Positions 1 through 31,915 are shown, counted from the stretch's first letter. The stretch is 32,000 bases of DNA from Geobacter metallireducens GS-15 (GCF_000012925.1 NC_007517.1:1320001-1352000), one strand, 5' to 3'. Numbers and translations: made by a program. Notes: generated by a model not told the origin, from the letters alone.

Positions 1-1
1 C

Positions 2-4555: not shown

Positions 4556-4620
4556 GTCTCAATAAGACCCTGTAGGCTTTCCGCCCCATTCTCGCGAATG
4601 GTTTAGTATTGTCGTCTATC
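4536..4620 (-). promoter_or_regulatory. GEMM-I cyclic-dinucleotide riboswitch aptamer (distal copy of a tandem pair)
   Basis: The minus-strand sequence is GATAGACGACAATACTAAACCATTCGCGAGAATGGGGCGGAAAGCCTACAGGGTCTTATTGAGACAGCCGGGTTGCCGAAATATC. It is nearly identical to the proximal copy, with differences only in hairpin loops. Confidence 0.8.
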
Positions 4621-13958: not shown

Positions 13959-14075
13959 GCATGCCCTCCTTGGCATATCACATGTTGGCCATCGTGGTGT
14001 TATATGGCAATCGAAACGAATGTGTCCCCGCGGAGAAAGGAGGAGGGCGGGGTGGGGGAAATTCTAATTAACAAA

Positions 14076-14235: not shown

Positions 14236-14322
14236 GATAGACGACAATACTAAACCATCCGCGAGGGTGGGACGGAAAGCCTACAGGGTCTCCCCGAGAC
14301 AGCCGGGTCGCCGAAATATCGC
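14236..14322 (+). promoter_or_regulatory. GEMM-I cyclic-dinucleotide riboswitch aptamer
   Basis: The plus-strand sequence is GATAGACGACAATACTAAACCATCCGCGAGGGTGGGACGGAAAGCCTACAGGGTCTCCCCGAGACAGCCGGGTCGCCGAAATATC. It matches the Vc2 core in the same way as the two copies at 4398-4620. The first hairpin shows compensatory changes relative to those copies (CCATCC/GGGTGG versus CCATTC/GAATGG). Confidence 0.85.
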
Positions 14323-16035: not shown

Positions 16036-17790
16036 CTAGCGTACCCCCTCCCAGGTGATGTAGCTGATCTTCATGACGCCGGGGCTGGGGCCGACCGGTT
16101 CCCTGATTTTGAAGGCGGACAGGTTGCCGCGGTTGGTACGGACGCAGACGTTGGCGTTCTCCGGTATCCTTTGGATGGGGATGCGCCGCTGCGTCATCTT
16201 GACTTTCGAGCAGTTTTCATAGGTGGGTTTTTCTCGGGTGAAGCCGAGGGAAGCCCCATTGCGCGGCGTCAGGTAACGCTCCGTCTCCGTTTCCGCCTCG
16301 AACCAGATGTCCGCGTCACCGTTCTGGGCAATGCTCCCTGCATCCAGGTCAAACAGATAAGTCTGGCGAATCTCGCCCCTTCCCTGGGTGATCATCTTCC
16401 CCGCTGTGGGCTCTTCTGCCGTCCTTCCGGCGTCCGGCGGCGCGGCAACCACCAGATCCACCCGTGTCCCGCGCTTTGCCGTGGTTCCACCCCTGATCTT
16501 CTGGTCGAGGATTGTTCCGGGACGCGCCCGGGTCGTCGGTCGCCGGGTCTCGGCCCCCGGCTGCAGTCCCGCATCCACCAGCATCTTCAGGGCGCGTTGC
16601 CGGGGCTGCTTCACCACGTTGGGCACCGTCACCAGTTCCGGTTCCGGGGGCTTTACGGCTACCACCAACCTGACTTTTCTCCCCTGTGCCAGCTTCGAGC
16701 CGGCCTTGGGGGTCTGGCCGATGATCGTGCCCGGCTCTGACGTGTCGGTTTTCCGCTTTTCCACCGTTCCCACCCTCAAGCCGGCTGTTGCAAGGGCAGC
16801 CTTGGCGTCACCGAGGGTTTTCCCGGCCAGTTTCGGCACGGTGACGAGCTTCGGCGGAGGGGGCTCCTGCTGTCCGCCGGGCGGCGGTTCTTCCGGCCGT
16901 TCAGGAGGAACCGCCACGACGAGATTCACCATCGCTCCGGCGGTGACGCTCGTCTCCTCCGGCGGCTCCTGCTGAGTCACTGTCCCCGGTGGGGCTTCGG
17001 GCACAATCTGCCGCACCACCTGGGGGTGCAATCCCTTGACGCGGAGGGCCTCGACGGCCTGCTGCTCCTCCATGCCGGTAACCCGAGGCACAGTGATGGC
17101 TACCGGTTCAGTCTGCCCCTGGCCGGAAGGGGTGGTGGTGCCGGTCGTCGTAACGGGCGGCGATCCCTTGAACAGCTTGACGAAGCTGGTGCGCAACGAT
17201 TCGACGCCGGTGAAGAGCCCCGCCAGCGCCACCACGATTGCGGTGATGGAGCTGATGAGCCAGGCGAGCCGATTCTTCCGTACCGCCGGCACGGCGCCGG
17301 TACCGCCCGGCGCAGCCGCTCCGACCGTCCCCTCCAGCACCCTGCCCAGGGTATCCACCAGTTGCGCCAAGTCCGAGTCCCAGTGGGTGTCGTTGATCTC
17401 GATGGCGTTGCGGCGGGCCAGGAGCTTCAGGTCGTCGGGGAGATCCGCCTCCCCCGGCATGGCCGCATCCTGGACCAGCACCGGAACCACCCGGATGTTC
17501 CGCCGCAGGGCCGTCCCCACTTCCAGGCGGATGAAATCCCGGGGGTCGTCCAGGCGACGCCGGCCCGCCGCGTCGGTACAGTCAATCCACCGCCGGCCGA
17601 TTATTACCAGGAGCACCGCGCAGGAGCCCACGGCCCGGTCGATGGCCTCCACAAAATCAACTCCCGGCTCGATGGCGGAGACGTCCATGAAGACCCGGTC
17701 CCTGCCGAAACGTTCCCGCAGCCGGTCGTAGACCCTGCCGGCGTGGCCGGCACTCTCCTCGCGGCGGTAGCTGATGAATATGCCTTCCAT
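16036..17790 (-). CDS. TIR domain / single TM helix / three PASTA domains / beta-rich C-terminal domain protein (584 aa)
   Basis: The N-terminus is TIR_2-like: IFISYRREESAGHAGRVYDRL...VFMDVSAIEPGVDFVEAIDRAVGSCAVLLVIIGRRW...DFIRLEVGTAL. The TM helix is LAWLISSITAIVVALAGLFTGV (aa about 175-197). Three PASTA-like repeats each start with (I/V)TVP and end with LVVA (aa about 231-450, nt 16441-17100). A roughly 120-aa C-terminal domain of unknown family follows. The RBS is GGAGGAAACCACA before ATG 17790. Confidence 0.85.
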   Translation of the reverse strand: MEGIFISYRREESAGHAGRVYDRLRERFGRDRVFMDVSAIEPGVDFVEAIDRAVGSCAVLLVIIGRRWIDCTDAAGRRRLDDPRDFIRLEVGTALRRNIRVVPVLVQDAAMPGEADLPDDLKLLARRNAIEINDTHWDSDLAQLVDTLGRVLEGTVGAAAPGGTGAVPAVRKNRLAWLISSITAIVVALAGLFTGVESLRTSFVKLFKGSPPVTTTGTTTPSGQGQTEPVAITVPRVTGMEEQQAVEALRVKGLHPQVVRQIVPEAPPGTVTQQEPPEETSVTAGAMVNLVVAVPPERPEEPPPGGQQEPPPPKLVTVPKLAGKTLGDAKAALATAGLRVGTVEKRKTDTSEPGTIIGQTPKAGSKLAQGRKVRLVVAVKPPEPELVTVPNVVKQPRQRALKMLVDAGLQPGAETRRPTTRARPGTILDQKIRGGTTAKRGTRVDLVVAAPPDAGRTAEEPTAGKMITQGRGEIRQTYLFDLDAGSIAQNGDADIWFEAETETERYLTPRNGASLGFTREKPTYENCSKVKMTQRRIPIQRIPENANVCVRTNRGNLSAFKIREPVGPSPGVMKISYITWEGVR

Positions 17791-19183: not shown

Positions 19184-19226
19184 GGTGATCTCCTTCCATG
19201 GAGTTTGAGAGCTGGTCAAACCACGA

Positions 19227-20204: not shown

Positions 20205-20253
20205 GGTGCCTCCCTGTATGCGTGCAACCCTGCTATAACCAAAACAGTCTGTA

Positions 20254-21609
20254 TCAACGTCTACCGCCACCCCGGGAGCCGCCGCCGGATGGCTGTCGTA
20301 TCTCGCCGCCCCGGAAGCCGCCACCGGCAGGCTGTCGTATCTCGCCACCTCTGAAGCCGCCTGAAGGCTGTCTGATCTCTCCCCCAAAACCGCCTCTGGA
20401 CCTTCCCATCGGCGGCGTACCACTCCGGATGCTCATCTCGCCGCGATTGATCGCCCGGCGCTCGAAGGTCCCTTCGCCGACCCCCCTGAAGGGGGTATCC
20501 CGCCCTGCCGGCCGCTGTACCTGTTCCCTCGGTGCCTGTATTCTCGGCGTCACCGTGGTGCCTTCCCGCCGCTCAACCGGAGCCTGCCGGACTGCTGGCC
20601 CTTGTTCCCTCTGCGGCACAACGGCCCGTTCCCTCTGTTCAGGCACGCGCCCGGCAGGCGCCTGTGTGCCCCGCAATCCCGGCCTCACTTGACCCCTGAC
20701 TGGATAGCCGCGTGTTTCCGGCCCGGCCGGTGACACCCGTGTCGGTCTCAGCCCAAAGCGTTCGCCCGTTCGTATGTCCCGATAGGCAACCCCTCTCCTG
20801 TGGACGGGGTTATGGCGCCAGACAGAGCCGCCAAGATCCCGGCTGGTATTGAAACGGTTGAACCGCCTCGTCCGGTCGAAGTCTACGTGGATACGATGGG
20901 AACGCCAGTCGCACCAGGCCCAGGAAAAAATGTTGAAGCTGAAATAGAAGGGAGGGCCGAAGGCGATGTAGCTCAGGCCGAAGGGGTAACTGGTCGGGTA
21001 ATACCAGTAGTAGGGGGGGTAGTCGGGATACCACCACGGGCCATAGATATATGACGGATCATAGACCGGCACATAGATGACTTCCGGGTCAACCGGCTCG
21101 ATCTGGATCTCTCCCTGATCCTCGACAACCTTCTGCTGGCTGGTTGTCTTGAGATTCCCCTGCTGCTCGGCCTTCTGGCGCAATTCCTGGATGGAGGCCA
21201 TGACATCATCTTCCTGGCTCAGAAAGGCATCCCCCAGTTTTCTCGTCTGGTCGAGCTTGTCGCTCAAGGCGAAGAGAACGTCCGGAAAATGGCAGAGCGA
21301 TTTGACGCTGGGATCCCACGGCTTGTTCTGGAGGGCATTGTCCAGTTCGGTCCCTTTCAGCCCCATGTTGTCCCGCCGCCATCGCTCCGCCTCCACTAAT
21401 TCAAGCGGATACGTGGATGCCATCAGCACCTGGGCGATCAATGAATCGGGATACAGGGCGATCGGCGCAAGCATCTGAGTCAGCTCCTGCTTGCTGAACT
21501 TGGCCGCCTGATCGGCTTCCCCTTCCTGCGCCATTGTACCCACCGGCATCGCGAGCATGACGATGACGATACATGCCACCTTCAGGATAGTCATGATTGT
21601 CGCTTTCAT
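20254..21609 (-). CDS. DUF3300-family secreted protein with a Gly/Arg-rich repetitive C-terminus
   Basis: The hallmark segment is LTQMLAPIALYPDSLIAQVLMASTYPLELVEAERW (family recalled from memory), with a signal peptide. The preferred start is ATG 21609 (MKATIM), with GAGGAGAGCTT upstream. Confidence 0.8.
   Translation of the reverse strand: MKATIMTILKVACIVIVMLAMPVGTMAQEGEADQAAKFSKQELTQMLAPIALYPDSLIAQVLMASTYPLELVEAERWRRDNMGLKGTELDNALQNKPWDPSVKSLCHFPDVLFALSDKLDQTRKLGDAFLSQEDDVMASIQELRQKAEQQGNLKTTSQQKVVEDQGEIQIEPVDPEVIYVPVYDPSYIYGPWWYPDYPPYYWYYPTSYPFGLSYIAFGPPFYFSFNIFSWAWCDWRSHRIHVDFDRTRRFNRFNTSRDLGGSVWRHNPVHRRGVAYRDIRTGERFGLRPTRVSPAGPETRGYPVRGQVRPGLRGTQAPAGRVPEQRERAVVPQREQGPAVRQAPVERREGTTVTPRIQAPREQVQRPAGRDTPFRGVGEGTFERRAINRGEMSIRSGTPPMGRSRGGFGGEIRQPSGGFRGGEIRQPAGGGFRGGEIRQPSGGGSRGGGRR
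20270..20395 (-). repeat. Three imperfect tandem coding repeats (about 36-40 nt) encoding GGEIRQP(S/A)GG(G)FR units
   Basis: GGCTGTCGTATCTCGCC recurs at about 20291 and 20331, and a variant, GGCTGTCTGATCTCTCC, occurs at about 20366. The translation is GGEIRQPSGGFRGGEIRQPAGGGFRGGEIRQPSGGGSRGG. Confidence 0.6.
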
Positions 21610-21652
21610 AAGCTCTCCTCTGTTACGTTTCCCGTCCATCCAGCACACCCCT

Positions 21653-24600
21653 TCACGGCGGGCCGGCGTTACCGCGTTCCGTCACTACCGCCTCATACCC
21701 CTTGCGGACCCACATGGCGTTGCTCCCGATGTTCAGCTTCTCCAGACCAGGCGGCGGATCCACTCCCGGGTCGAGGGGGTGGAGCTGCAGTGCCTCCTCC
21801 CCTTTTTCCGTCAGGGCCGTTTCCAGCTCCCACCCCACCCATTTGGACTCGCTGGCGCTCTTGGACCAGAAGAGGAGGAAAAGGTCCCGCTCCCTGATCT
21901 CGTTGTCGAGGCGCGGCTTGAACTCTTCCCCGGGGTTCAGGTCGAGGCAGTCCTGGAAGACATCGATGCCCGCCGCGATCTTGATGGCGTCCACCCGGTC
22001 CAGGACCCGGAGCCGGTCCTTTGAGGAGTAGGAGGCGAAGGCGGTTTTTGCCGGCTCGCCGCTGGCGGTGGCGACTCTCTTCCTCTTCGGCGCGGCGGTT
22101 ATCTCCAGGTCGAGCCGCAGGCGCGCCACGATGATCCCCTCAATGGCCACATCGAACTTGAGGGGGATGGTCCCTTCCTCGGCGCCCTTGGGCACGGTCA
22201 CGTCGAACTCCAGGAGGGACCGCCCCCCCTGCCAGGTGAATTCCTGCTCGGGAGGATCGACGGTGAGCCCCCGGCCCGAAAGCTTGACGGTGACGCGGGT
22301 ATCCCGCTTCCAGCGGCACTCCTGGATGCCGAGCACCGGCTCGGCGGAGGGGGCCAGTTTCGTGAGGAGATCCTGGACCTCCTGCTCCAGGGCCTTTTCG
22401 TAGGCCACGAACCGGGCGGTGAACTCGCTCCCCGGTTTCGCCTGCCGGGGGGCCGAGGCGCCGAGTTGGACTGGCTGCAGCTCTTCGGCCGCATCCGGCA
22501 CGGTGCCGGACATTTTGGGCGCAGGTGCCGGCGGAGGCCCTCCCCCGACGGTTGGAGGAGGCTCGGCTCCGACAGGTGATGGCTCCCCTTGTGACGGCTC
22601 TGATAGCTCAAGTTTTTTCAGCCGGAGGGGGCGGCCGAGAGTAATAGTTGCGTGTGTGTCCACGGATCGCATGTCGTCGGGAGTGAAACGAGCCACTGAA
22701 CCGCCCGCCCGCATCGTCACTATGTCGACTGGCCCGATCCCGCGTTTCTCGTCACCGCTTCCCGCTGCTTCCGCCCCCTCCCGGATTTCCTGCAGGGCCG
22801 CCACGAGCCCCTGTCTTTCGAGATCTTGCGGTACCGATGAGAGTACGTTCTTGAGAAACGCCAGCTGGTCCAGCACCGACTGGAACTGCCGAGGCGATCC
22901 CACATTCTTCGCCCTGGCGTAGTCGTCGATTATGTCCCCGGTATAATCGGCCAGATCCCCGGCGGCCAGGTGCCTGAGGAGGAGACAGTCCACCGGCGTG
23001 GCCGTGTTCCAGAAATCGGGGCTGGCATTGTGCTCTCCCTCCGCCAGTTCCACAGCCTTGTCCACGGCGGATTCGAAATCGGGGGGGAGTTGTTCCTCTC
23101 CGTCCAGCAGGTGGGCCAGGGTCTGGGCCGTCAGGTGATTGACAAGGGGATAGTAGGATGGTTTGCCCCGTTCGAGGCCGAGGGCGTACGCCCGGTAGTA
23201 GTGATCCGCCATGGCATGGAGGGCCGCCTGCTTTTCCGGGACTTCCGTGGCGATCATCATCCGCCGCTTGGCAACGCTCCCCAGAAGCGATAGCCGTTCC
23301 ACGGTCTCGCCCAGGGCGCTGTTCAGCCCCGTCAGCCTCTCTTCCGCCTCGGTGACGAGGTGAAGCGCCTTGGCCGGGTCTGTGGCGGCCAGTTCCTGGG
23401 CCCACCGGGACTGCAGGTTCCAGAGCTGTTCCGCTGTTTTGATGGTGGCAAGCCCCTTGTCGTCGTCGGTGGCCCTCCGGTAGTGATCCACCGCCTCCGC
23501 AAACTGCTTCAGCTCGCCGTAGGCCCGCCCCAGCGCCTCCTGGAGAGTACCGCAGGCGAGCCAGGCCGGCGGAACGCTCTGCTCGATGCCCCGGATGGCC
23601 TTCAGGTGCGCGTCAGCGGCCGGTCCCCGGGAGGTCTTTGCCGCCGCGGCGATGTTCTCAAGGTCGACGATCGCCTCGGAGATTGCGGTGTAGGAGATTC
23701 CGCGGCTGCGGGGAACAGTGGCGCCGTCCCCTTTGCCGAGGGTGAAGTCGGGGTCGCCGTAGCACTGGTAGGCGCCCCACGTGTTAGCTTCGGGGTGGGC
23801 GGCGTAGGTGGCGATGCGGGCCGCGAGCACTGCCTGGCCGAAGGTGCTGCCGGTCAGCATCCCCCGGTAGAACGTGGCGGCAAAGAGGGACGCCGCATCG
23901 TCCTGCACGGCCCAGCCGGCGGCCACCACTCCCCGTACCCCCATCCGGATCAGTTCGGTGGCCACGTTGGCGGCCAGGTTCGGCAGGTTGCGGGGGGGAT
24001 TCCGGTCGTCGATCTTCCCCAGGTGGCAGCAGTTGACGAATACCAGTTGCGGCACCGTGCGCATCTGCCGGATCTGGGCCGCCGTCAGGAACTGGTTCTC
24101 GCCGATGACCATGCCGGTGACGGGGTTCCCCTCGGTCTGCTGGTGGCAGGAGCCGCACGGCACCGGCGGGCGGTAGTCCAGCACGCCGTGCCCGGCCAGG
24201 TGGACGATCCGGTAATCCCGGGCAAAGAGCTCGGTCATGATGGCCGGCCCCGTGGCATCGGAGCCGATGAGGGGGGTTATGGTGTATCCGTAGTTCTTGA
24301 GGGATTTCTCCACCTCCCGGGCCTCCTGCTCGGCAGCGGGGAGGTTGGTGAAGGGGGTGGTGGGGTTGCCGATGACCAAGGCCGTTGCCTCCCGTGCCAT
24401 CACCACCTGTTCGCGGAACCGTTCCACCAGGAGCTGCCGCACCATCCCGGCCTGGACGGCCAGGGGCTTTTCGGCCCGGGCGGTGCTGTCACCCCGCCTG
24501 CGCTCCTGCATCATTTCCCACGGATAGCGGGCCGCCGTGTCGTTCAGCACCAGCACCATGTCCCGGCGGTCAAGGGTGTACTCCTTCAGCTCGTTGGGGA

Positions 24601-27600
24601 CCAGCATCTCGAAGAGGGTCACGGCAACCCCTTCTTCACTGGCGGTGGTTTCCGACATCTCTTCTATGAACCGGTCGGCCAGGCTCCGCTGGGACTGCTG
24701 CAGGTAGACCTCGGCCCGGGCCCGGTCGGTGAGGAGGTTGAAGGAGAGTCGCTCCTCCTCGTCCTCGGTGATCTGGAGCCGCTGCCACCAGGGGTCCTCC
24801 TCGAAGAAGCTGGCCCGGCGCATCCCTCCTTCCAGGGGGATGACAAGGGGGGTGGCGTCGATGTCAAAGGCCCGGGAGATGTCCGGGTCGCTGCGCAACC
24901 GCGCAAGGGTTCTGGCTGCCTGTATGGCCCGGTCCTCGTACAATTCCACGAACTCCACCTCTTCGATTGGGGCGCAGTCGGCGCGGCCCGAATCGGCGAT
25001 GGCGTGGTTGGCGTCGATGATCCCCCGGAGTATGGCGGTCACCGCGTCCTGCACCGAGACGCCGCCGGCGCCGGTTCCAACGAGGAGTGCGCTGATGCCG
25101 GCGGGGCCGGGCGTGCCGCTCCTGACCGGGAGGCATTCGGCCCGCGCGACGGAATAGGCCCGCGCTCCGCGGGAGACGGCCCGCAAGAGCTGTCCCGGGG
25201 AGAGCTCACCCACGCTGCCGAGGCCAATGACGATGGCTCCGGCCGGCTTGCCGTCATTTCGTTGCGACTCCTCCCACGAGAGGTTCAGGAACACCTCGGC
25301 AGTGCCGTCGGCCCCGGGGTATACCCCGAGCTTGTGCCGTGCGCTCAGCCGGCCGTCGAGGGTCCGGTCCAGGTAGGCCTCGGCGCTGATGATGGTGTCA
25401 CCCTTGTAGTGCCCCACCAGGACCGGGTGGCCGGCAAAGGCCAGGTTTCCGTGGCGGACGCTGATCTGAATCTTGCGTTCGGTGCGGCGGGGCCGCTTCG
25501 CGCGTCCGGCCCCTACCGCGGTCCGGGCCAGGTCGGTGAAGTCGGGGTAGAGGGGCTCCTTCTCCGCCGGAAGCTCGAAACGTTCAGGCACGCCGCGGGT
25601 TTCGGGCGGGGCCGTCGGCAGTAGGTCGGTGGTGCCGCGCCGCAAGAGGTCGGTTATAGCGTCGAACCCCTCCTCGGCGCTCGGAAGGTCGCCGTGGGAG
25701 GCCTGCAGGTACCAGGCCTTGACCCCGTCCGGAATGCCGCCCTCCCACGGCACCCTGCCGTCGCCCCGGGGGGTGGCGTGGAAGACCAGCCGCTTCTTCT
25801 CCCCCGTATCCTCGATGGTCAGGTCCACCGGCGTGGCCGGCGCACAGCCGGCGATGTAGAGCATCCGCTGCGGGTCGATGGGGGAGGCGGCCAACTTCTG
25901 CCGGTTGGCGCGGGCCGCTGCCAGCGCGGCGGCGGTGGGGGGCTGCCAGGTGTCGTTTTCCGGGTCGGCGTCCGCCAGGTTCTGCCACGCCCCGGCATCG
26001 AAGAGGTCGAAGCTGGACAGGGCGGGGAGCATCTCCAGGAGGCCGGGAAACTGCGCCACGATGCTGATCAGTTCCCGCTTTCTGCGGGTTATGTCCAGCA
26101 GGGCCAGCTTGCGGATGAGGCTGTCGCGCCCGGTCAGTACCTGGGTCACCGCATGGGAGCCGCCGTTGGGGGTGCCGAGCATGATGAGGCGCGCATCGGC
26201 ACGTTCCTTCATCCGCTCCCACACCTCAGGCCGGGCCACGATCATGGCCCGGGCCACGAGTCCTCCCATGGAGTGGGCCACGATGCTCACCGGCTGTCTG
26301 TTTTTCTCGGTGGCGTCCAGGGCTTTGGTGATGGCGTCGGCGAGGCGGTTCGCCTCATCGAAGAGCGAGAGCCGCCAGTCGAAGGGGAAGGGCTCCACCC
26401 GGTGGGTTATCGCCAGGTGTTTCACCAGGTCGCCGTAGAAGAGCCAGATGGGAGCGTCCGGTTTCACCAGGTTCGGCGTACCGTAGCTCAGGAGCTGCAA
26501 TTTCCCCCGGGCAATGTCGAAGGGATCGAGCCAGATCCGGTTCTCGTCGATGGCCAGGTGGCTCCCCATGATTCCGGGCAGCACGAAGACCACCGGCGCC
26601 ATGTCGGCCACGTCCCGCTTCTCGTAGGGGGGGGTGCCGCTGTCGGTGGCCCGCACCGAAAACGTTTCGAACCCGTCCGCTTCCGAGCCGCTCCGGGAGA
26701 GGGTCCGGGCGAGGCCGTCGGCGCTGTCGGCGTTCTCGAAGTAGCTGAAGTGGTTCACATCGGGCCCGCGCCGGAAGATGAATCCGGACCCGCCGGACCG
26801 CTCACAGCCGCCGAACATGGCCTCGGTGTTCACCACCAGATCGTTGTCGTCCTGGTAGAGGGGGTCTGTCAGGAGAGTGCCGATGGCGCTCAGGACGTTG
26901 CCCCCCTCGATATCCCCGGCGATCACCCGCAGCTCCCCGGCAACGGGGGCCTTGGGCCTGTTCAGGAGCGCCACCAGGGGTGAGGAGGGGATCATGGCCT
27001 CGATTCCCGGCAGCACCGTGGGGTCGGTCCGCTCCTTGGCCACGGCCATGATCAGCTCGCTGAAGATGCTGGTGAAGATCCCGCCGGGAAGCTGGGCAAC
27101 AAAGCCGTACCCCTCCAGGAGGTTGAAGAGGACCGACAGGTAGATGTCGAGCCGCTCCGACGCAAGGGTGGTCCCCCGGGCGGGGCAGGCCACCCGCACG
27201 AATCGCTCGATCTTGAACTGCTTCTCCTTGAGGAGGGTGTTGAGGCGCTCCAGGTCTCCCCGTGCCTTGTCGGGGTTGCGTTCGGCGAAGAACGTCAGGT
27301 CGGCATCGTCGAAGGGGTCGCGCCCCCCCTCCATGCCGGACCGGCAGAGGAGTTCCCCAACCATCCCCCCCCGGGAGTGGGAGACCAGGTGGAGCCGCGC
27401 CCCGGCCGGCAACCGCTCGGCAGCGGCAATGGCGTTGTCGATGGGGTTCTTGGAGAGGGTTTCGTGCTCCAGGCCGAAGACCCGCCCCTCGTAGGGGGTG
27501 AGGAGCTGTTGCCGCTGGGGGCGGCGCTTGTCGGTCCAGAGCTTGCCGAAGCTCCCCGTCGTGGACGAGGCGGTGCCGTGGAGAAAGAGGAGCGACGGGC

Positions 27601-28132
27601 GGTCCGCCGGGAGGTCGAGCACCGCTTCGGAAACCGGCGTGATCGCCAGCTCGTCTCCCGGTAGGAACCGGTGGAGCCCGGGGCCTCGGTTCTCATCCTT
27701 TGTGCCGAGGAGATGGTTCTCCAGCTTCTCCGCGATGAAGCGGGCCGCGTCCGCCGCCACGTCGATGTTGAAGAACTTCAGGGTCTTGATGACGATCTTG
27801 CCGATGAGCCCCCGCGAGGCGCCCCGCCGTTCGATGGCGGCCGGCAGCTCCACCACCCCGTCCGCCCCTCTGGTGCCGGCCAGGCCGAGCAACTCGGTCC
27901 GCAGCCGCTCCTGGGAGGTCCAGAACCGGGTCCCGTCTTCCAGCTCCACCTCCACGATGTCGTCGGGGCGGCTCTCGATCACCGGCGTCTCCGTCCCCCC
28001 GGACCGCGCCGCGCTGATCTGGAAGGTGCGCACCTCTTTGATGGTGATCTGGCCGGTGGTTCCGGGGGGGAGCGGTCCCGTGATTTCCGTGCCGGGGATG
28101 CGGAGTTTGATGGTGGATTTATCTTCGGCCAT
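21653..28132 (-). CDS. Giant multidomain protein (2159 aa): N-terminal unknown domain, alpha/beta-hydrolase, LCAT-like lipase/acyltransferase, CHAT caspase-like protease, helical region, beta-sandwich, C-terminal TIR
   Basis: Domains read from the translation (approximate aa and nt):
- aa 175-470 (nt 26723-27610): alpha/beta hydrolase, LLFLHGTASS...LHLVSHSRGGMVG, nucleophile-elbow Ser about 253.
- aa 510-830 (nt 25643-26605): LCAT/PGAP1-like lipase, VFVLPGIMGS...PFPFDWRLS...VSIVAHSMGGLVARA.
- aa 1245-1465 (nt 23738-24400): CHAT, with the His/Cys dyad in RIVHLAGHGV and LVFVNCCHLG.
- aa 1480-1790: helical, TPR-like region.
- aa 1845-1875: Pro-rich linker.
- aa 1885-2012: beta-sandwich.
- aa 2028-2125 (nt 21758-22051): TIR, AFASYSSKDRLRVLDRV...LFLLFWSKSASESKWVGWELETAL.
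The RBS is GGAGGGAAATACC before ATG 28132. Confidence 0.9.
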   Translation of the reverse strand: MAEDKSTIKLRIPGTEITGPLPPGTTGQITIKEVRTFQISAARSGGTETPVIESRPDDIVEVELEDGTRFWTSQERLRTELLGLAGTRGADGVVELPAAIERRGASRGLIGKIVIKTLKFFNIDVAADAARFIAEKLENHLLGTKDENRGPGLHRFLPGDELAITPVSEAVLDLPADRPSLLFLHGTASSTTGSFGKLWTDKRRPQRQQLLTPYEGRVFGLEHETLSKNPIDNAIAAAERLPAGARLHLVSHSRGGMVGELLCRSGMEGGRDPFDDADLTFFAERNPDKARGDLERLNTLLKEKQFKIERFVRVACPARGTTLASERLDIYLSVLFNLLEGYGFVAQLPGGIFTSIFSELIMAVAKERTDPTVLPGIEAMIPSSPLVALLNRPKAPVAGELRVIAGDIEGGNVLSAIGTLLTDPLYQDDNDLVVNTEAMFGGCERSGGSGFIFRRGPDVNHFSYFENADSADGLARTLSRSGSEADGFETFSVRATDSGTPPYEKRDVADMAPVVFVLPGIMGSHLAIDENRIWLDPFDIARGKLQLLSYGTPNLVKPDAPIWLFYGDLVKHLAITHRVEPFPFDWRLSLFDEANRLADAITKALDATEKNRQPVSIVAHSMGGLVARAMIVARPEVWERMKERADARLIMLGTPNGGSHAVTQVLTGRDSLIRKLALLDITRRKRELISIVAQFPGLLEMLPALSSFDLFDAGAWQNLADADPENDTWQPPTAAALAAARANRQKLAASPIDPQRMLYIAGCAPATPVDLTIEDTGEKKRLVFHATPRGDGRVPWEGGIPDGVKAWYLQASHGDLPSAEEGFDAITDLLRRGTTDLLPTAPPETRGVPERFELPAEKEPLYPDFTDLARTAVGAGRAKRPRRTERKIQISVRHGNLAFAGHPVLVGHYKGDTIISAEAYLDRTLDGRLSARHKLGVYPGADGTAEVFLNLSWEESQRNDGKPAGAIVIGLGSVGELSPGQLLRAVSRGARAYSVARAECLPVRSGTPGPAGISALLVGTGAGGVSVQDAVTAILRGIIDANHAIADSGRADCAPIEEVEFVELYEDRAIQAARTLARLRSDPDISRAFDIDATPLVIPLEGGMRRASFFEEDPWWQRLQITEDEEERLSFNLLTDRARAEVYLQQSQRSLADRFIEEMSETTASEEGVAVTLFEMLVPNELKEYTLDRRDMVLVLNDTAARYPWEMMQERRRGDSTARAEKPLAVQAGMVRQLLVERFREQVVMAREATALVIGNPTTPFTNLPAAEQEAREVEKSLKNYGYTITPLIGSDATGPAIMTELFARDYRIVHLAGHGVLDYRPPVPCGSCHQQTEGNPVTGMVIGENQFLTAAQIRQMRTVPQLVFVNCCHLGKIDDRNPPRNLPNLAANVATELIRMGVRGVVAAGWAVQDDAASLFAATFYRGMLTGSTFGQAVLAARIATYAAHPEANTWGAYQCYGDPDFTLGKGDGATVPRSRGISYTAISEAIVDLENIAAAAKTSRGPAADAHLKAIRGIEQSVPPAWLACGTLQEALGRAYGELKQFAEAVDHYRRATDDDKGLATIKTAEQLWNLQSRWAQELAATDPAKALHLVTEAEERLTGLNSALGETVERLSLLGSVAKRRMMIATEVPEKQAALHAMADHYYRAYALGLERGKPSYYPLVNHLTAQTLAHLLDGEEQLPPDFESAVDKAVELAEGEHNASPDFWNTATPVDCLLLRHLAAGDLADYTGDIIDDYARAKNVGSPRQFQSVLDQLAFLKNVLSSVPQDLERQGLVAALQEIREGAEAAGSGDEKRGIGPVDIVTMRAGGSVARFTPDDMRSVDTHATITLGRPLRLKKLELSEPSQGEPSPVGAEPPPTVGGGPPPAPAPKMSGTVPDAAEELQPVQLGASAPRQAKPGSEFTARFVAYEKALEQEVQDLLTKLAPSAEPVLGIQECRWKRDTRVTVKLSGRGLTVDPPEQEFTWQGGRSLLEFDVTVPKGAEEGTIPLKFDVAIEGIIVARLRLDLEITAAPKRKRVATASGEPAKTAFASYSSKDRLRVLDRVDAIKIAAGIDVFQDCLDLNPGEEFKPRLDNEIRERDLFLLFWSKSASESKWVGWELETALTEKGEEALQLHPLDPGVDPPPGLEKLNIGSNAMWVRKGYEAVVTERGNAGPP

Positions 28133-28162
28133 GGTATTTCCCTCCGTGGAGCTATTATTTGT

Positions 28163-29710
28163 TCAATTATTTCGAAGTGCTTTACGCTTTCCAATTTCCC
28201 GAGTCATGTTCTCGGCAGGGACGACGACCGATTCGTCAAAGGAGGCAAGCAGGTCTTCAATGCCCCGATATCGATGTATGTCCAGCACCCACGGATATTT
28301 GCGGAGAGTTCCAAATGTTCCGTAGGGGTTATCTCCTTCGATTATTGGCAGAACAGGCACTTCTACATCGGGAACGATTGAGCGTAGTTCATCGGGAACG
28401 CAGTGAGGCTCCGTCAGGTCGGCAATAATGAATCTGGCCATCCGTGCAAGGAGTGTAACGGTTTCCACTTCATCGAGGGACTCTGGCCGATTGAAGTCAA
28501 AGAGTACAGGTACGTAGTTGCAGGCTCTAAGCTGATCTCGCACGGCATCGAGCACCGATTTTCGCTCTGGAGAGAAACGGCCGAGGATGAGTACAATCTT
28601 CGAGGTTATAGTGTCTACAGCTCGGCGTACCTTGGCGTTATTGAGAAGCAAATAGATAAACTGGGCCATCTCGATGTCGTCTACCGTAACCTGCGGGTGG
28701 TTCAACTTAGTGACTACCAGATCCTGTTGGTCGGCATCCTCCGCGAGTACCTCCCACGGTGAAATCCCGAAGACCAAGCATCCCCTGAGGGTGGCGCGTC
28801 TCAGATCGGTGCCGACCATTAGGGCGCCCGTCAGATTTGCATTGGTGAGGTTGGCCTCCGCAAGATCGGCCATTGTGAGGTTAGATAGACTCATGTTGAC
28901 GTTGCGAAGGTCGGCCCCAGTCAGTTTCGCATTCATGAGCACAGCCCCCTGGAGATTCGTTCCTCGGAAGATAGCGTCGCGCAAATCGGCTTCCATGAGG
29001 TTCGCGAAAGCAAGTTTAGCTCCGCTGAGATCGGCGGCGATGAGTGTTGCGCTATTGAGATAGGAATTTGAGAGGTCTGCCCGGCAGAAGGATGCATGGC
29101 GGAGGCTCGCCTCGCTAAACGTTGCGCTGAGGAGGCTGGCATCGGAAAACACCGCTTCGTTGCACTCTGCCTTGAACAGGTCTGCAGTGCCCAAGTTGAT
29201 TCCTGATAGGTCAGCACCTGTGAGGATCGCGTTCCGGAACCGGGCGCCAAAGGCTTCAGCATTTCGGAACGATGCTCCTGCCAGTCGTGCACCGGTGAAA
29301 TCGGTCCCGATCATATCGGCGCGCTCAAGGTTCGCACCTTCGAGAATGCACCCTTGCATGCCGCAGCGAAGGGTTACTCCCCGAAGACTGCTGTTGCAGA
29401 AATTTGCTCCCTGGCAGTTTGCACCGAAAAGGTTGGCACCGTCCAAATCAGTGCCGGCAAGGATGGCGCCCCGCAGATTGGTCCCCATCATCCGGCAGTT
29501 GCGAAGATTTGCGTTCCCGATGTTTGACTCTGCCAGATTCGCATCGAACAGAACTGCTCCTTCAAGGGTAGCACCTGTCAGGGCGGGGCGTATTGCTGGA
29601 TTGGTCGTTCTCCAGTTGTTCCAGATTGATATGTCGCACTGTTCAACTGCCCTTAGCAGGACGCTGAGATGCTCAGTGTCGCCTGAAAATGCTGGATTGG
29701 ACGGATTCAT
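28163..29710 (-). CDS. Pentapeptide-repeat protein with an uncharacterised alpha/beta (Rossmann/flavodoxin-like, possibly TIR-like) C-terminal domain (515 aa)
   Basis: aa about 43-315 (nt 28766-29584) are continuous A(D/N)LxX pentapeptide repeats, for example ANLAESNIGNANLRNCRMMGTNLRGAILAGTDLDGANLFGANCQGANF. aa about 368-500 (nt 28211-28609) alternate beta strands and helices: KIVLILGRF-SPERKSVLDAVRDQLRACN-YVPVLFDF-...LDEVETVTLLARMA-RFIIADLT. The RBS is GAGGGAAACAAC before ATG 29710. Confidence 0.85.
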   Translation of the reverse strand: MNPSNPAFSGDTEHLSVLLRAVEQCDISIWNNWRTTNPAIRPALTGATLEGAVLFDANLAESNIGNANLRNCRMMGTNLRGAILAGTDLDGANLFGANCQGANFCNSSLRGVTLRCGMQGCILEGANLERADMIGTDFTGARLAGASFRNAEAFGARFRNAILTGADLSGINLGTADLFKAECNEAVFSDASLLSATFSEASLRHASFCRADLSNSYLNSATLIAADLSGAKLAFANLMEADLRDAIFRGTNLQGAVLMNAKLTGADLRNVNMSLSNLTMADLAEANLTNANLTGALMVGTDLRRATLRGCLVFGISPWEVLAEDADQQDLVVTKLNHPQVTVDDIEMAQFIYLLLNNAKVRRAVDTITSKIVLILGRFSPERKSVLDAVRDQLRACNYVPVLFDFNRPESLDEVETVTLLARMARFIIADLTEPHCVPDELRSIVPDVEVPVLPIIEGDNPYGTFGTLRKYPWVLDIHRYRGIEDLLASFDESVVVPAENMTREIGKRKALRNN

Positions 29711-29763
29711 GTTGTTTCCCTCGGGGGGAGGAACTGCGGGTTTCGAACTCGTTCGCTGCTAAC

Positions 29764-29791
29764 AGTATAGGGCTGTCTGGCACCGCTTCAA
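29764..29791 (-). promoter_or_regulatory. Putative sigma70-type promoter for the pentapeptide and giant genes
   Basis: The minus strand reads TTGAAG (29786-29791), a 16-nt spacer, then TATACT (29764-29769). It lies in the 217-nt lower-GC gap between the JAB stop and the pentapeptide ATG. Confidence 0.3.
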
Positions 29792-29927
29792 GGAAACGAA
29801 CTGAAATGAGTGATAATTTTTAGGGAAGAGGCGGGTTTCTAAGGAAGTGTGTTGAGGGGAGGGGGCTGGAATTGTTTGAATAGTGAAGAGTGGGATTGCC
29901 GGGTGAGGATCCGGAAGAGGATCCGGG

Positions 29928-30632
29928 TCAGATCTCACCCCGAAAACCCAGGAGGGAAGGGCACTCGATGGTAATCAGCCGGTCGTTGTTGGCTGAGTAT
30001 TTGACGGTGCCGTTTTGTTCGTACACATAGTACGCCGATAGCCATACTTTCTTCTTCCCCAGGTTGAACTCAATCGCCTGGGATCTGGAGTTGGCGGGTT
30101 TGGCTCCCACGCCTCCCGTTCTTTTCATCCCCGCAATGGTGACGACCAGCCCTATCCGGTAGCCGTAGCTGAGGCACAGCGCCGCATTCGCTTCCAGCCA
30201 GTGGCGGTCTCCATTGGAGATATAAAAGCCTTTATCATCTCCCCGGCGGTCGCCTTCCTCCAATTCCACCGAATAGACATCGCTGACGGATTTATAGACA
30301 TGGGTGTGGTAGTCCCCGAGATATTCGAGGTTCGGCCAGAAGGCTCCCATGATGTCCGCCTTTAGTTTCATGGCATTGGTATTCGGCGTCACTGACCGTT
30401 TGTTTCTTTTTGCCGATGTATCCACATTGGCAATCTCGATCTGGTAGAGAATCCTGTTGTCCTTCAACGGCACCTGGTAGCCGAACAGGGCGCCGCACGT
30501 CTCCAGATGGGGTGTTTTCCGTTCATGTTCAACGGAATAGGCTTCGAGTCCGTTCAGGATGAGCGTTATGAGGGCATGCTCGGACAGGCGTACCACATAA
30601 CCTGTTTTTTTCTGCAGATGTGCTGTATCCAA
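29928..30632 (-). CDS. JAB/MPN (JAMM)-like metallopeptidase domain protein (234 aa)
   Basis: It has an N-terminal Glu motif typical of JAB domains (HLETCGALFGY) and an H-x-H motif (GDYHTHV). Two candidate S-x-x-D motifs follow (SVSD and SNGD), but at non-canonical spacing. The only in-frame start is TTG 30632, with GAGGT 5 nt upstream. There is no internal ATG until aa 88. Confidence 0.7.
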   Translation of the reverse strand: MDTAHLQKKTGYVVRLSEHALITLILNGLEAYSVEHERKTPHLETCGALFGYQVPLKDNRILYQIEIANVDTSAKRNKRSVTPNTNAMKLKADIMGAFWPNLEYLGDYHTHVYKSVSDVYSVELEEGDRRGDDKGFYISNGDRHWLEANAALCLSYGYRIGLVVTIAGMKRTGGVGAKPANSRSQAIEFNLGKKKVWLSAYYVYEQNGTVKYSANNDRLITIECPSLLGFRGEI

Positions 30633-30690: not shown

Positions 30691-31155
30691 CTACTCCCGA
30701 TCATCTTGCCGGGCGAGCAGGGTTTCGAGCATCGTCTGGAGTTCGGCAATGGCGATATTCTGAGCGGCGAGGTTCTCCAACACTTCCTTGACCTCCACTT
30801 CCGCCTTGAGATTGACCTCGTAATCGTTGTGGGCCTCGATCCGGTCGCGAGCCGCCTGCCGGTTCTGGCTCATCATGATCATTGGCGCCGTATAGGCTGC
30901 CTGGAGGGACAGGACAAGGTTCATCAGGATGAACGGATACGGATCCCAGTGTCGGACCCAGGCGGTAACGTTGAGCAGCGCCCAGAGGGTAAGGAGCACA
31001 GACTGCCCGATGATGAATTCCCATGAGCCGACCCTGGCGGCGATCCAGTCCGCCGCCTTTTGGCCTATGGTCAGCTGTTCCGTGATGACTTCGTTGACGT
31101 TTTTGACCGGCGCGTGTTCATGTTTGTATGGCGCAGGGAATGTTGGTCTTTTCAT
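30691..31155 (-). CDS. DUF1003-family membrane protein
   Basis: The hallmark segments are GSWEFIIGQSVLLTLWALLN...WDPYPFILMNLVLSLQAAYTAPMIMMSQNRQAARDR...DYEVNLKAEVEV (family recalled from memory). The preferred start is ATG 31155 (MKRPTF). Confidence 0.75.
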   Translation of the reverse strand: MKRPTFPAPYKHEHAPVKNVNEVITEQLTIGQKAADWIAARVGSWEFIIGQSVLLTLWALLNVTAWVRHWDPYPFILMNLVLSLQAAYTAPMIMMSQNRQAARDRIEAHNDYEVNLKAEVEVKEVLENLAAQNIAIAELQTMLETLLARQDDRE

Positions 31156-31195
31156 GGGGGCACCTCTCTCTTCCCTTCGGCTATTCAACGTTTCT

Positions 31196-31915
31196 CTACT
31201 GCATTAAATGAACGAGCACCGGCAGCAGCAAAGCGGTAAACAACCCGTTCAGCGCCATGGCCAGGGCCGAAAACGCACCGGCCATCCTGCTCTTCTGAAT
31301 GGCATGGGCGGTGCCGATGCCGTGTGAGGCGACTCCCAGAGCCATGCCGCGGGCGTTGTCGTCCTTGATCCTCAGCAGGTTCAGTATGAAGTCGCCGCCA
31401 ACGGCTCCGGTAATTCCGGTCAGAACGACCACCACGGCGGTTAACGACGGCAAACCGCCGATCTGTTCGGAAATTCCCATGGCGATCGGTGTCGTAACCG
31501 ATTTCGGAGCCACACTCAAAAGGATGATTGTTTCTCCCCCCAGCGCCCAGACAATGCCGACCGCGCTGATGATGGCCGCTACGGAGCCCACTGCCAGGGT
31601 GATGAGAATCGGGATAAAGGACTTTCGGATTACTTCCATCTCCCGATAGAGCGGTATTGCCAGGGCGACCGTTGCCGGACCGAGCAGAAAGTGAATGAAC
31701 TGGGCTCCCCGGAAATAGGTCTGATAATCGATGCCGCTCACCTTGAGCAGCACAACGAGCAGGATGATGGCGGTCAGCACCGGATTCAGCAAAGGAGGGC
31801 AGTCGAGCCTCCGAAAGACCCACGTGCCGATCTGGTACGCGATCAGGGTCAACGTCAGCCACAACAGGGGAGAGGTCGACAGGTACACCCATACCTGCTG
31901 CATTTCAGCGCTCAT
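31196..31915 (-). CDS. lrgB: LrgB/CidB-family membrane protein
   Basis: This is a polytopic membrane protein of 239 aa with LrgB-type segments: LNPVLTAIILLVVLL, LGPATVALAIPLY, SVAPKSVTTPIAMGISEQIGG and LGVASHGIGTA. The ATG overlaps the stop of the upstream small gene (ATGA). Confidence 0.85.
   Translation of the reverse strand: MSAEMQQVWVYLSTSPLLWLTLTLIAYQIGTWVFRRLDCPPLLNPVLTAIILLVVLLKVSGIDYQTYFRGAQFIHFLLGPATVALAIPLYREMEVIRKSFIPILITLAVGSVAAIISAVGIVWALGGETIILLSVAPKSVTTPIAMGISEQIGGLPSLTAVVVVLTGITGAVGGDFILNLLRIKDDNARGMALGVASHGIGTAHAIQKSRMAGAFSALAMALNGLFTALLLPVLVHLMQ

Follow-up and report, generated by a model that had tools for sequence, protein, structure and literature searches.

Genes at the locus

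The window, that is, the whole stretch of 32,000 nucleotides from Geobacter metallireducens GS-15 that was analysed, carries three co-directional ORFs on the minus strand, at exactly the positions given by a first-pass annotation that had proposed them as a new conflict system. That annotation overlooked a second TIR gene on the same strand, as well as the TPR-S and Macro-fold domains of the largest product. The four genes considered here are:

29928..30632, minus strand: divergent JAB/MPN-like protein, 234 aa, TTG start (sub-threshold Prok-JAB and PADLOC JAB matches)
28163..29710, minus strand: pentapeptide-repeat protein, 515 aa, with a conserved C-terminal alpha/beta domain (Pfam)
21653..28132, minus strand: giant multidomain protein, 2159 aa (ORF; DUF7379/lipase/Macro-like/CHAT/TPR-S family with a C-terminal TIR)
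16036..17790, minus strand: TIR-TM-PASTA protein (Pfam TIR_2 and three PASTA repeats; TM helix at aa 174-199)

The assignment of the first product as a JAB/MPN-like peptidase is sustained in part. A metal-ligand pattern (E44, H109-x-H111, S139-x-x-D142) was seen by eye, with an unusually long motif insert (27 residues versus the canonical 7), but the profile scores are marginal: Prok-JAB reached 23.9 bits, under its cut-off of 25, and PADLOC JAB gave E = 4e-5. This protein has only 13 homologues; no conserved gene was found downstream of them, the downstream genes being mutually unrelated.

The second product had been described as a pentapeptide solenoid fused to an alpha/beta domain. The repeats are clear (193 bits in Pfam, aa ~40-310), but the C-terminal ~200 aa lack a match in Pfam, PHROG and PADLOC, and for this part secondary-structure prediction gave only an alternating strand-helix (Rossmann-like) pattern. 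No PDB sequence matched this domain, not even when a profile of 25 diverse representatives was used, and the AF2 model (pLDDT 47) was too poor for a structure search. The family of this domain comprises 4364 matches and 5034 representative clusters, in which it is always pentapeptide-linked or solitary.

Elsewhere in the window, neither the ORF at 9456-13976 nor that at 5688-9443 matched Pfam, NCBIfam or PHROG, and the first of these two large ORFs, of 1506 aa, had no PDB sequence match. There are no tRNA genes. In agreement with the first-pass annotation, a repeat search and the scans with Pfam (17 ORFs) and PADLOC (9 ORFs) revealed no CRISPR array, CD-NTase or E1/E2 gene in the window.

Domain architecture of the giant protein

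The regions recognised in the giant protein, all encoded on the minus strand, are:

27623..28132, minus strand: N-terminal region, aa 1-170 (family-conserved columns in alignment A1; no Pfam match)
26633..27622, minus strand: first alpha/beta-hydrolase (DUF7379), aa ~171-500 (Pfam PF24096, 124 bits)
25553..26605, minus strand: second alpha/beta-hydrolase, LCAT/PGAP1/phospholipase A2-like, aa ~510-860 (Pfam LCAT, PGAP1, DUF676)
24836..25471, minus strand: Macro / leucyl-aminopeptidase-N fold domain, aa 888-1099 (AF2 model and Foldseek)
23753..24625, minus strand: CHAT (caspase-superfamily) protease domain, aa 1170-1460 (Pfam CHAT, 107 bits)
22763..23665, minus strand: array of TPRs that contains the TPR-S 'sensor' domain, aa ~1490-1790 (Pfam PF20308)
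22088..22762, minus strand: Pro-rich linker and, after it, a beta-rich region, aa 1791-2015 (start of the clade-specific C-terminal extension)
21713..22075, minus strand: TIR domain, aa ~2020-2140 (Pfam TIR_2, 43 bits; PADLOC ThsB-like, 3e-10)

The first reading of this protein, with two lipase-type hydrolases, a CHAT protease and a C-terminal TIR, was borne out by Pfam, which finds DUF7379 (cut-off 33 bits), an LCAT/PGAP1/DUF676-type lipase spanning aa 580-690, CHAT, with weaker matches to Peptidase_C14 and C25 in the same region, and TIR_2 at aa 2032-2120. The PDB matches of the second hydrolase were group XV phospholipase A2 (4x90) and LCAT. In addition, TPR-S (PF20308) was detected at aa 1544-1668, scoring 54 bits (cut-off 27.6).

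The motifs named in the first-pass annotation were all located: SHSRGG at S253, AHSMGG at S621, the CHAT dyad at H1315 and C1368-C1369, and GWELE at E2102. In alignment A1, which includes 18 diverse sequences of the family, the putative triads of the first (S253, D431, H461) and second hydrolase (S621, D791, H813) and the His and Cys of the CHAT domain (H1315, C1368/C1369) are invariant, and the TIR residues are the sole named motif residues that are not. Conservation of the TIR Glu was scored separately on 21 aligned TIR-fused homologues, and the candidate catalytic E2102, in the context S-x-W-V-x-W-E, was kept in every one of them. Judged by these residues, the two Ser-Asp-His hydrolases and the CHAT protease of the core are catalytically intact. 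The linker and beta-rich extension were found in TIR-fused homologues only, and the linker has a GC3 of 0.575 versus 0.86 across the remainder of the gene.

The AF2 model of aa 875-1175 had a mean pLDDT of 82, with most of aa 888-1099 above 90. Its Foldseek matches included 3jru_A (3e-7), macroH2A1.1 (3e-6), the PARP14 macro domain, YmdB, Af1521 and viral macro domains, and a weak M17_N profile match falls in the same region. The N-domain of leucyl aminopeptidase, which does not bind ADP-ribose, matches this fold (3e-7) about as well as true macro domains do (3e-6 and weaker). From the model, the domain is a candidate ADP-ribose-type ligand site.

Neither a signal peptide nor a TM segment was detected in the giant protein, and the possibility of a secreted toxin was rejected for this reason. 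The thousands of homologues rule out that the gene is an artefact of a high-GC ORF.

The JAB and pentapeptide genes are not conserved partners of the giant gene

The three genes had been proposed to constitute one system in which the pentapeptide protein would act as a DNA or protein mimic or sensor, and the JAB protein as a licensing protease. Their local arrangement favours this proposal to some extent, since they are co-directional and, as had been noted, only 30 nt separate the stop codon of the pentapeptide gene from the ATG of the giant gene, which is preceded at 8 nt by a strong ribosome-binding site (GGAGGG). A promoter-like site is present 5' of the pentapeptide gene (29791-29764), and no terminator-like site was found between this gene and the giant gene. 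Given this spacing and the lack of a terminator-like site, both genes are probably co-transcribed in the window, and a functional link between them may have been recently gained here. In contrast, 217 nt separate the JAB and pentapeptide genes.

The comparison with other genomes argues strongly against the proposal. The co-occurrence of the three genes across genomes, set beforehand as a test, was not found: none of 80 related giant loci in other species contained a pentapeptide or JAB homologue (tblastn at 1e-5, blastp at 1e-3). Beyond the window, the trio and its gene order were retained in G. grbiciae only, where the DNA identity of 96% indicates synteny, not selection. The relatives of the giant gene in loci L082 (83% identity) and L083 (81%) lack both genes and instead have VapBC/Fpg directly upstream, and the DNA homology of the window to L082, L083, L045 and L001 ends at 28105-28145, where the giant gene has its 5' terminus. 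Likewise, the JAB homologues in five other contexts (L084, L085, L086, L091, L092) have no pentapeptide gene or giant gene beside them, and the pentapeptide-domain homologues in two contexts (L087, L088) have no JAB gene or giant gene. Codon composition is also strongly different: GC3 reaches 0.863 in the giant gene, compared with 0.583 in the pentapeptide gene and 0.664 in the JAB gene. Near an 'ADLT' strand-helix motif, the pentapeptide C-terminal domain weakly resembles the TIR-like N-domain of TPR-S proteins, which would favour a joint function, but the hhalign probability of this match was 1-2% and non-significant.

These comparative data already largely refute a three-component system, which we regard as very improbable. 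The new sensor and regulator logic invoked for it is also unneeded, since TPR-S and the Macro-like domain are candidate sensors within the giant protein itself. The explanation that we favour, with fair though not high confidence, is that the JAB and pentapeptide genes do not belong to a conserved system but are neighbours peculiar to the lineage of the window and G. grbiciae, in which they were inserted immediately 5' of the giant gene, and that the giant protein is a cytoplasmic sensor and effector of a conflict system.

Size, spread and genomic neighbours of the giant family

The proposal of a three-gene system should be abandoned, but the giant protein merits attention in its own right, since it belongs to a very large family: 2758 homologues were found at E<1e-5, and one scan found relatives encoded in the genomes of at least 595 species. 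Among the matches listed (120 homologues with the same Pfam set), identity was 40-95% over 80-100% of the query. The giant protein fits the family order DUF7379, LCAT-like hydrolase, CHAT, TPR-S, colinear over the full length, with a conserved core of ~1,800 residues. The family occurs in Desulfobacterota, Nitrospirota, Acidobacteriota, Proteobacteria, Verrucomicrobiota, Gemmatimonadota and others, and is abundant in sediment and biofilm taxa. Databases label its members merely as 'CHAT domain-containing' or 'DUF7379', PADLOC does not include the family, and our literature search found no experimental work on it.

Fusion to a C-terminal TIR is restricted to the Geobacter/Desulfuromonadales clade. 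Of the six TIR-fused loci with usable flanks, five (L001, L002, L081, L082, L083; not L045) have a further TIR gene nearby, as does the window. The gene encoding TIR-TM-PASTA follows the giant gene after 19 bp in L083 and is also present in L081, L082 and L002; in the window its GC3 (0.81) is near that of the giant gene. It is thus the probable ancestral downstream partner of the giant gene in this clade, and its product is, as read from its domains and TM helix, a TIR protein anchored in the membrane, with its PASTA repeats in the periplasm.

In other phyla, a small peptidase gene frequently precedes the giant gene. For 64 loci, at least 1.5 kb of upstream sequence was available. Of these, 24 had a C14 (caspase) gene and five a C11 (clostripain) gene on the strand of the giant gene and no more than 1.2 kb from it. 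Among 40 loci flanked on each side by at least 5 kb, where in-house HMMs were used for TPR-S and patatin, a TIR-like/TPR-S/SLOG protein was found in 13, a TIR gene in nine and a patatin in eight; these patatins are CapV-like and match CBASS phospholipase models (PADLOC 6e-47). Some homologues are plasmid-borne and adjoin type I R-M and IS elements, and TIR-NACHT and VapBC are also found in the context of some genomes. Altogether, the classification of the giant as a multidomain protein of the conflict type, acting in immunity or programmed death, is supported.

A TIR gene was present within 10 kb in only about a quarter of the core-only loci with good flanks, and many homologues appear solitary, indicating that TIR signalling cannot be the universal input of the family. 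This distribution favours the alternative that the giant protein is a self-contained sensor-effector without a small-molecule relay, in which TPR-S and the Macro-like domain would directly recognise their target, either a phage protein or some modified macromolecule, and the TIR would be a third effector (NADase). TPR arrays commonly bind proteins, some of the homologues are solitary on plasmids, and Avs/TIR-STAND-type proteins offer a likeness for a TIR acting as effector. In several systems TIR domains act as effectors that deplete NAD+, and cases of this kind were discarded by Yirmiya et al. (bioRxiv 10.64898/2025.12.03.692087, section 5). Against this alternative, the Pfam match is specific to the TPR-S subtype and not to generic TPRs, the family repeatedly has TIR genes, patatins and TIR-like/TPR-S/SLOG proteins as neighbours, and the extra TIR genes beside the TIR-fused giant in the Geobacter clade are unexpected for a TIR that is only an effector. 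We consider a relay-free protein rather unlikely.

Relationship to known systems

As the first-pass annotation had anticipated, no named system claims the giant protein: no Thoeris type was assigned at threshold, PADLOC gave only generic domain-level ThsB matches (E 3e-10 to 7e-3), and no NCBIfam model exceeded its cut-off, ThcB4 reaching 21 bits versus 220. On the TIR side, the features in common with Thoeris are the TIR_2 and ThsB-like matches, the Glu invariant among TIR-fused homologues and the second TIR gene. TPR-S and the Macro-fold domain are candidates for an effector domain that would bind the TIR product, the latter with the double resemblance described above. In type II Thoeris, His-ADPR is bound by a Macro domain (bioRxiv 10.64898/2025.12.03.692087).

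The closest resemblance is to the TIR/TPR-S systems, whose prediction by Burroughs & Aravind 2020 (J Bacteriol, e00365-20) is taken here as cited in later preprints (bioRxiv 10.1101/2023.05.26.542521, 10.64898/2025.12.03.692087), and to type VIII Thoeris (ThsB and ThsI). In these, as in the giant, TPR-S (PF20308) is linked to TIR and enzymatic effectors, and the partners given for 'Tpr-centred assemblies', namely TIR-like/TPR-S/SLOG proteins and patatins, are likewise present in giant-family loci. ThsI is described as responding to cADPR and as having the TPR predicted by Burroughs & Aravind for TIR signalling (bioRxiv 10.64898/2025.12.03.692087). However, ThsI is a CMP-hydrolase-TPR protein encoded apart from its TIR, whereas in the giant a single chain of 2159 aa unites TPR-S with two hydrolases, the Macro-like domain, CHAT and TIR.

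In type IV Thoeris, the TIR product N7-cADPR switches on a caspase-like protease (Rousset et al. 2025, as cited in bioRxiv 10.64898/2025.12.03.692087). The coupling of a TIR to a caspase-superfamily protease as killing effector is shared with the giant, but in the latter the protease is of the CHAT type and embedded in a multi-effector protein, and its family has the extra small C14/C11 gene upstream in other phyla. A further parallel is the VMAP/MoxR-vWA ternary systems (Kaur et al. 2020, PMC7159879), as caspase domains of bacterial conflict systems are always accompanied by alpha/beta-hydrolase genes; the same obligatory pairing, with predicted joint action, is seen in the giant, which, unlike those systems, fuses hydrolases and caspase and includes TPR-S. 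MoxR, vWA and VMAP genes were not detected in the Pfam scans of the 17 window ORFs.

Two other readings were rejected. CBASS with Cap3 (JAB) and CapV (patatin) likewise combines a JAB-like gene with lipase-type effectors, but the giant has alpha/beta-hydrolases and not patatins as its lipase domains, its JAB gene is not conserved alongside it, and neither a CD-NTase nor Cap2 E1/E2 was found in the ORFs scanned. In TPR-CHAT (Csx29) of the type III-E CRISPR 'Craspase', a CHAT protease is joined to a TPR array and remains inactive until it receives a signal. The giant shares this CHAT-TPR joining but differs in domain order and in its additional lipase, Macro and TIR domains, and among the ORFs scanned there was no match to Cas7-11/gRAMP or other Cas proteins, nor did the repeat search find a CRISPR array.

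A model for the giant protein

The best reading of these data is that the giant protein is an uncharacterised Thoeris-like effector of TIR signalling, and that its family probably senses a TIR-made, NAD-derived signal. Phage infection, envelope damage or a similar trigger would activate a TIR, either the one fused to the giant or that of the neighbouring TIR-PASTA membrane protein, and this TIR would convert NAD+ into an ADP-ribose-derived messenger. This messenger would be read by the TPR-S array, a predicted nucleotide sensor for which experimental support is only indirect, and/or by the Macro-like domain, and its binding would unlock the CHAT protease and the lipase/esterase domains; the resulting protein and membrane damage would lead to cell death or arrest (abortive infection). 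In other phyla, the small upstream C14/C11 peptidase and CHAT would probably form a proteolytic relay. The fused TIR could instead be an NAD+-depleting effector and not a signal generator.

As deduced from its sequence, the giant would unite three executioner activities with two candidate ligand-sensing domains, to which one clade adds a signal-making TIR. If true, TIR/Thoeris-type signalling would extend to a new and abundant class of effectors, and bacterial execution by lipase plus caspase would be under the control of an NAD-derived second messenger. In plant cell death, TIRs act with lipase-like EDS1-family proteins, and the model would bear on the evolutionary links among bacterial, plant and animal cell-death pathways.

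A more far-reaching version, which we put forward tentatively, is that the giant of the Geobacter clade contains a whole TIR-signalling pathway in one chain. The messenger would come from its own C-terminal TIR, or from the adjacent PASTA-anchored TIR reporting envelope damage, and would be read in cis by Macro/TPR-S, so that two lipases and a caspase-like protease would be switched on together; the TIR-less core, present in at least 595 species, would be a general receptor-executioner working through the upstream caspase.

Alternatively, the family might not be anti-phage but serve developmental or kin-directed programmed cell death, or an envelope-stress response in which PASTA-TIR reports peptidoglycan damage and the giant remodels lipids and proteins. 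PASTA repeats are typical sensors of peptidoglycan fragments, and the partner TIR protein has three of them, predicted to be periplasmic, besides its TM helix. The abundance of the family in sediment and biofilm taxa points in the same direction, and related conflict systems are enriched in multicellular/social bacteria (PMC7159879). We nonetheless hold such a role to be improbable, since some genomes place the family among mobile and defence-island elements (R-M, IS elements, VapBC, TIR-NACHT), and its neighbours include a CapV-like patatin and caspases, which are typical of abortive-infection effectors.

The giant gene and its upstream neighbors

The first-pass annotation had grouped three minus-strand ORFs as a candidate undescribed conflict system; all three were found at exactly the coordinates proposed.

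21653–28132 (−): the giant gene, encoding a protein of 2159 aa
28163–29710 (−): pentapeptide-repeat gene
28163–28765 (−): region encoding the C-terminal domain of the pentapeptide protein (aa ~316–515, ~200 aa)
29928–30632 (−): JAB gene

The giant ORF has the RBS GGAGGG and starts 30 nt past the stop of the pentapeptide ORF, and a search for a terminator-like site in this intergenic stretch found none. The JAB ORF lies upstream of the pentapeptide ORF, separated from it by a gap of 217 nt that includes a sigma-70-like site (29791–29764). The two lipase-type hydrolases, the CHAT domain and the TIR domain previously assigned to the giant were supported by Pfam, which also detected a TPR-S domain.

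DUF7379 hydrolase: 124 bits
LCAT/PGAP1/DUF676-type lipase: Pfam match
CHAT: 107 bits
TPR-S ("tetratricopeptide repeats-sensor", PF20308), aa 1544–1668: 54 bits
TIR_2: 43 bits

The TPR-S domain had been missed in the first-pass annotation, and so had a conserved stretch that separates CHAT from the lipase. In the 515-aa pentapeptide protein, the repeats scored 193 bits. The JAB assignment was upheld in part: the Pfam score is below threshold (23.9 bits, cut-off 25), but PADLOC gave a JAB match and the E...HxH...SxxD pattern is present, interrupted by a long insert.

For the C-terminal domain of the pentapeptide protein we found neither a Pfam model nor a PDB relative. Its family gave 4364 matches, and 5034 clusters at 50% identity; in every case the domain either is solitary or follows, as the C-terminal part, pentapeptide repeats that vary in length, and the motifs GRF...R-K, FDF and ADLT-x-P are strongly conserved. 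Two members on long contigs are solitary genes among small unknown ORFs.

Beyond the JAB gene, two ORFs overlap in different frames at 31185–31915 (−). According to the annotation of G. grbiciae (locus L081, 6791–7510), the real gene is probably 31196–31915 (LrgB), and 31185–31892 a shadow frame. The DUF1003 gene at 30691–31188 has no counterpart in that locus, where LrgB abuts the JAB gene.

The giant occurs without the pentapeptide and JAB genes

A collection of 80 giant loci with flanks of up to 10 kb was queried with every protein of the window (tblastn 1e-5, blastp 1e-3). The giant was matched in 80/80; at these thresholds there were matches in 0/80 for the JAB protein and for the pentapeptide protein, whether searched whole or as its C-terminal domain only. 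All three genes are also present in G. grbiciae, with 95% protein identity and 96% DNA identity. The pentapeptide and JAB genes are absent from the loci of the two next relatives, whose giants are TIR-fused: L082 (83% identity), where VapBC, Fpg, DUF2721, a C11 peptidase, a patatin and a TPR-S protein lie upstream, and L083 (81% identity), where Fpg is directly upstream of the giant. DNA homology to these two loci, and to L045 and L001, stops at window 28105–28145, where the giant gene has its 5' end. The three genes differ in codon GC3, with 0.863 in the giant, 0.583 in the pentapeptide gene and 0.664 in JAB; ordinary neighboring genes have values of 0.68–0.77. Only 13 homologues of the JAB protein were found; in the five contexts inspected (81%, 83%, 59%, 47% and 46% identity) neither a pentapeptide gene nor a giant was present around them, and the downstream genes were mutually unrelated.

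Lack of co-occurrence in other genomes is the outcome that the first-pass annotation had itself named as refuting its proposal. Since the closest relatives of the giant after G. grbiciae lack both neighbors, and homologues of the two occur in other contexts, the genomic comparison indicates that the three genes do not form a conserved unit, that the proposed new system is not real, and that the pentapeptide and JAB genes are lineage-specific neighbors of the giant. The three genes are probably co-transcribed in the lineage of the window, which leaves a small chance that a functional link with the giant was recently acquired.

Architecture of the giant family

At E<1e-5 we counted 2758 homologues of the giant, and when each species was represented by one genome, a pattern scan yielded at least 595 confirmed loci. 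The alignment of 18 relatives (43–96% identity) revealed a colinear core of ~1,800 residues. In these 18 sequences, S253 (in the nucleophile motif SHSRGG), D431 and H461 of the first hydrolase are invariant, as are S621 (AHSMGG), D791 and H813 of the second and H1315 and C1368-C1369 of CHAT. The residue order of the second hydrolase is that of LCAT, and its nearest solved structures are group XV phospholipase A2 and LCAT.

Because a faint profile match to the leucyl aminopeptidase N-domain was detected at aa ~893–977, the region of aa 875–1175 was modelled from a 70-sequence alignment. The model had a mean pLDDT of 82, with most of aa 888–1099 above 90. A Foldseek search of PDB returned leucyl aminopeptidase N-domains first (3e-7), followed by the macro domains of macroH2A1.1, PARP14 (macro 1), YmdB, Af1521, alphavirus, rubella and SARS-CoV-2, the latter group with probability 1.00 and target-normalised TM of 0.55–0.7. 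The predicted fold at aa 888–1099 reads as a Macro-fold domain between the lipase and CHAT, and the whole core reads as an N-terminal region, the DUF7379 hydrolase, the LCAT-like lipase, the Macro-fold domain, CHAT and TPR-S.

The last ~370 residues of the giant comprise a Pro-rich linker, a beta-rich region and the TIR domain, and this extension is found only in Geobacter/Desulfuromonadales relatives. The motif S-x-W-V-x-W-E, which includes E2102, is invariant in the 21/21 TIR-fused relatives aligned. The predictor found no TM segment in the giant.

Recurrent neighbors of the giant family

Neighbors were counted by all-against-all clustering of flanking ORFs, Pfam and PADLOC annotation of representatives, and in-house HMMs. 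Upstream sequence of 1.5 kb or more was available for 64 loci. In 24 of them a small caspase (Peptidase_C14) is encoded no more than 1.2 kb upstream on the strand of the giant, and in five a clostripain-like C11 peptidase under the same limits. Forty loci had flanks of 5 kb or more on either side: 13 encode a ~650–700-aa protein in which a TIR-like/DNPH1-like N-domain and a SLOG-like C-domain bracket TPR-S, 12 an M15-type peptidase just downstream, nine a TIR gene, and eight a patatin matching CBASS phospholipase effectors (6e-47). Some family members are plasmid-borne; the Azotobacter homologue lies between a type I restriction-modification system, a recombinase and IS elements, and the Paracoccus homologue appears solitary.

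Further TIR genes occur near the giant in the TIR-fused clade. The window itself has one, which the first-pass annotation did not mention.

16036–17790 (−): TIR-PASTA gene (cytoplasmic TIR, aa 1–150; one TM helix, aa 174–199; three PASTA repeats)

Its GC3, 0.81, is high like that of the giant. A TIR-PASTA gene lies 19 bp 3' of the giant in L083, and TIR-PASTA-type genes lie a few kb away in L002 and L081; a TIR-NACHT-TPR gene and a TIR fragment are 3' of the giant in L082, and TIR genes flank it on both sides in L001. No neighboring TIR gene was found in L045, even though this locus has flanks of full length. Both the window and G. grbiciae have a DUF3300-DUF2950-multihaem-cytochrome block (18005–21648 (−) in the window) that separates the giant from the TIR-PASTA gene. 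L083 has no such block at this position, so by this comparison an older giant/TIR-PASTA pair seems to have been split by its insertion. The DUF2950 ORF as listed (19227–20423) shares 170 nt with the DUF3300 ORF, and its Pfam match begins only at aa 114; the true start probably lies further into the ORF. A 39-bp tandem repeat is located at 20265–20379.

A Thoeris-like effector as a candidate function

The first-pass annotation could match the three-gene combination to no named system, and none covers the giant: PADLOC 2.0 gave only TIR-domain matches, and NCBIfam nothing above its cut-offs. CBASS was rejected as no cyclase was found in scans of the window ORFs, and Craspase as neither a Cas gene nor a CRISPR array was found in the window. 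The giant fits the computationally defined TIR/TPR-S class. TIR/Tpr operons with patatin, SLOG and caspase partners have been catalogued (bioRxiv 10.1101/2023.05.26.542521). Bacterial conflict systems pair alpha/beta-hydrolases with caspase domains, and the two were predicted to act together (PMC7159879). In its proposed mode of action, the giant is most like Thoeris types IV and VIII. According to bioRxiv 10.64898/2025.12.03.692087, TIR products switch on a caspase-like protease in type IV, and the type VIII effector ThsI has the TPR for which Burroughs & Aravind predicted a role in TIR signaling; the same source reports that type VIII responds to cADPR and that a Macro domain receives His-ADPR in type II. 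In the literature consulted we found no earlier description of this effector architecture or of the cis-fused TIR.

From the domain inventory, the three conserved catalytic centers, the intact TIR Glu and the recurrent association with caspase, TPR-S, patatin and TIR genes, we infer that the giant may be a receptor-executioner. An NAD-derived messenger would be made by the fused TIR or by the membrane TIR-PASTA protein, which could report envelope damage; TPR-S and/or the Macro-fold domain, as candidate sensors, would bind it, and CHAT and the two hydrolases, once released, would break down proteins and membrane lipids. The main rival leaves this architecture unchanged but makes the TIR an effector that acts as an NADase, and has the TPR/Macro domains sense directly; it is favored by the many TIR-less, solitary homologues. 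Taken by itself, the messenger relay is a tentative proposal to which we give somewhat less than an even chance. The broader reading, which drops the trio and takes the giant as a Thoeris-like conflict effector of this family, seems reasonably probable. Being abundant and unannotated, and offering clearly specified point mutants, this family is a good experimental target.

Other features of the window

Three c-di-GMP-I (GEMM-I, RF01051) riboswitch aptamers, first noticed as a ~110-bp repeat also present in G. grbiciae, scored above the gathering score.

4402–4478 (−) and 4541–4617 (−): tandem aptamers upstream of a cytochrome gene (3601–4218)
14239–14315 (+): aptamer upstream of an S8 subtilase gene (14409–15968), which is back-to-back with the TIR-PASTA gene

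Many Geobacter GEMM-I elements sense 3',3'-cGAMP, not c-di-GMP. Two very large ORFs are adjacent to each other, with GC3 of 0.89–0.90.

9456–13976 (−): 1506 aa
5688–9443 (−): 1251 aa

Searches of Pfam, NCBIfam and PHROG gave no match for either, nor did a PDB sequence search for the 1506-aa protein. The 1506-aa protein has a Gly-rich C-terminus with two hydrophobic segments, and its homologues are annotated as "hypothetical protein" on plasmids or megaplasmids of Bacillus, Rhizobium and Cupriavidus. A homologue is also found downstream of the giant in L001 and L081.

At 1–1914 (+), the window carries the g268 (PG_binding-like) and CorA genes. On the related Geobacter contigs L082 and L083 these two are found only a few kb downstream of the giant/TIR genes, and their relative orientation is the opposite one. 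The window has ~14 kb of variable DNA between g268/CorA and the giant/TIR genes, with the subtilase, the two very large unknown ORFs, a cytochrome and OEP. Together, the opposite orientation and the variable DNA point to an inversion and an insertion in this region.
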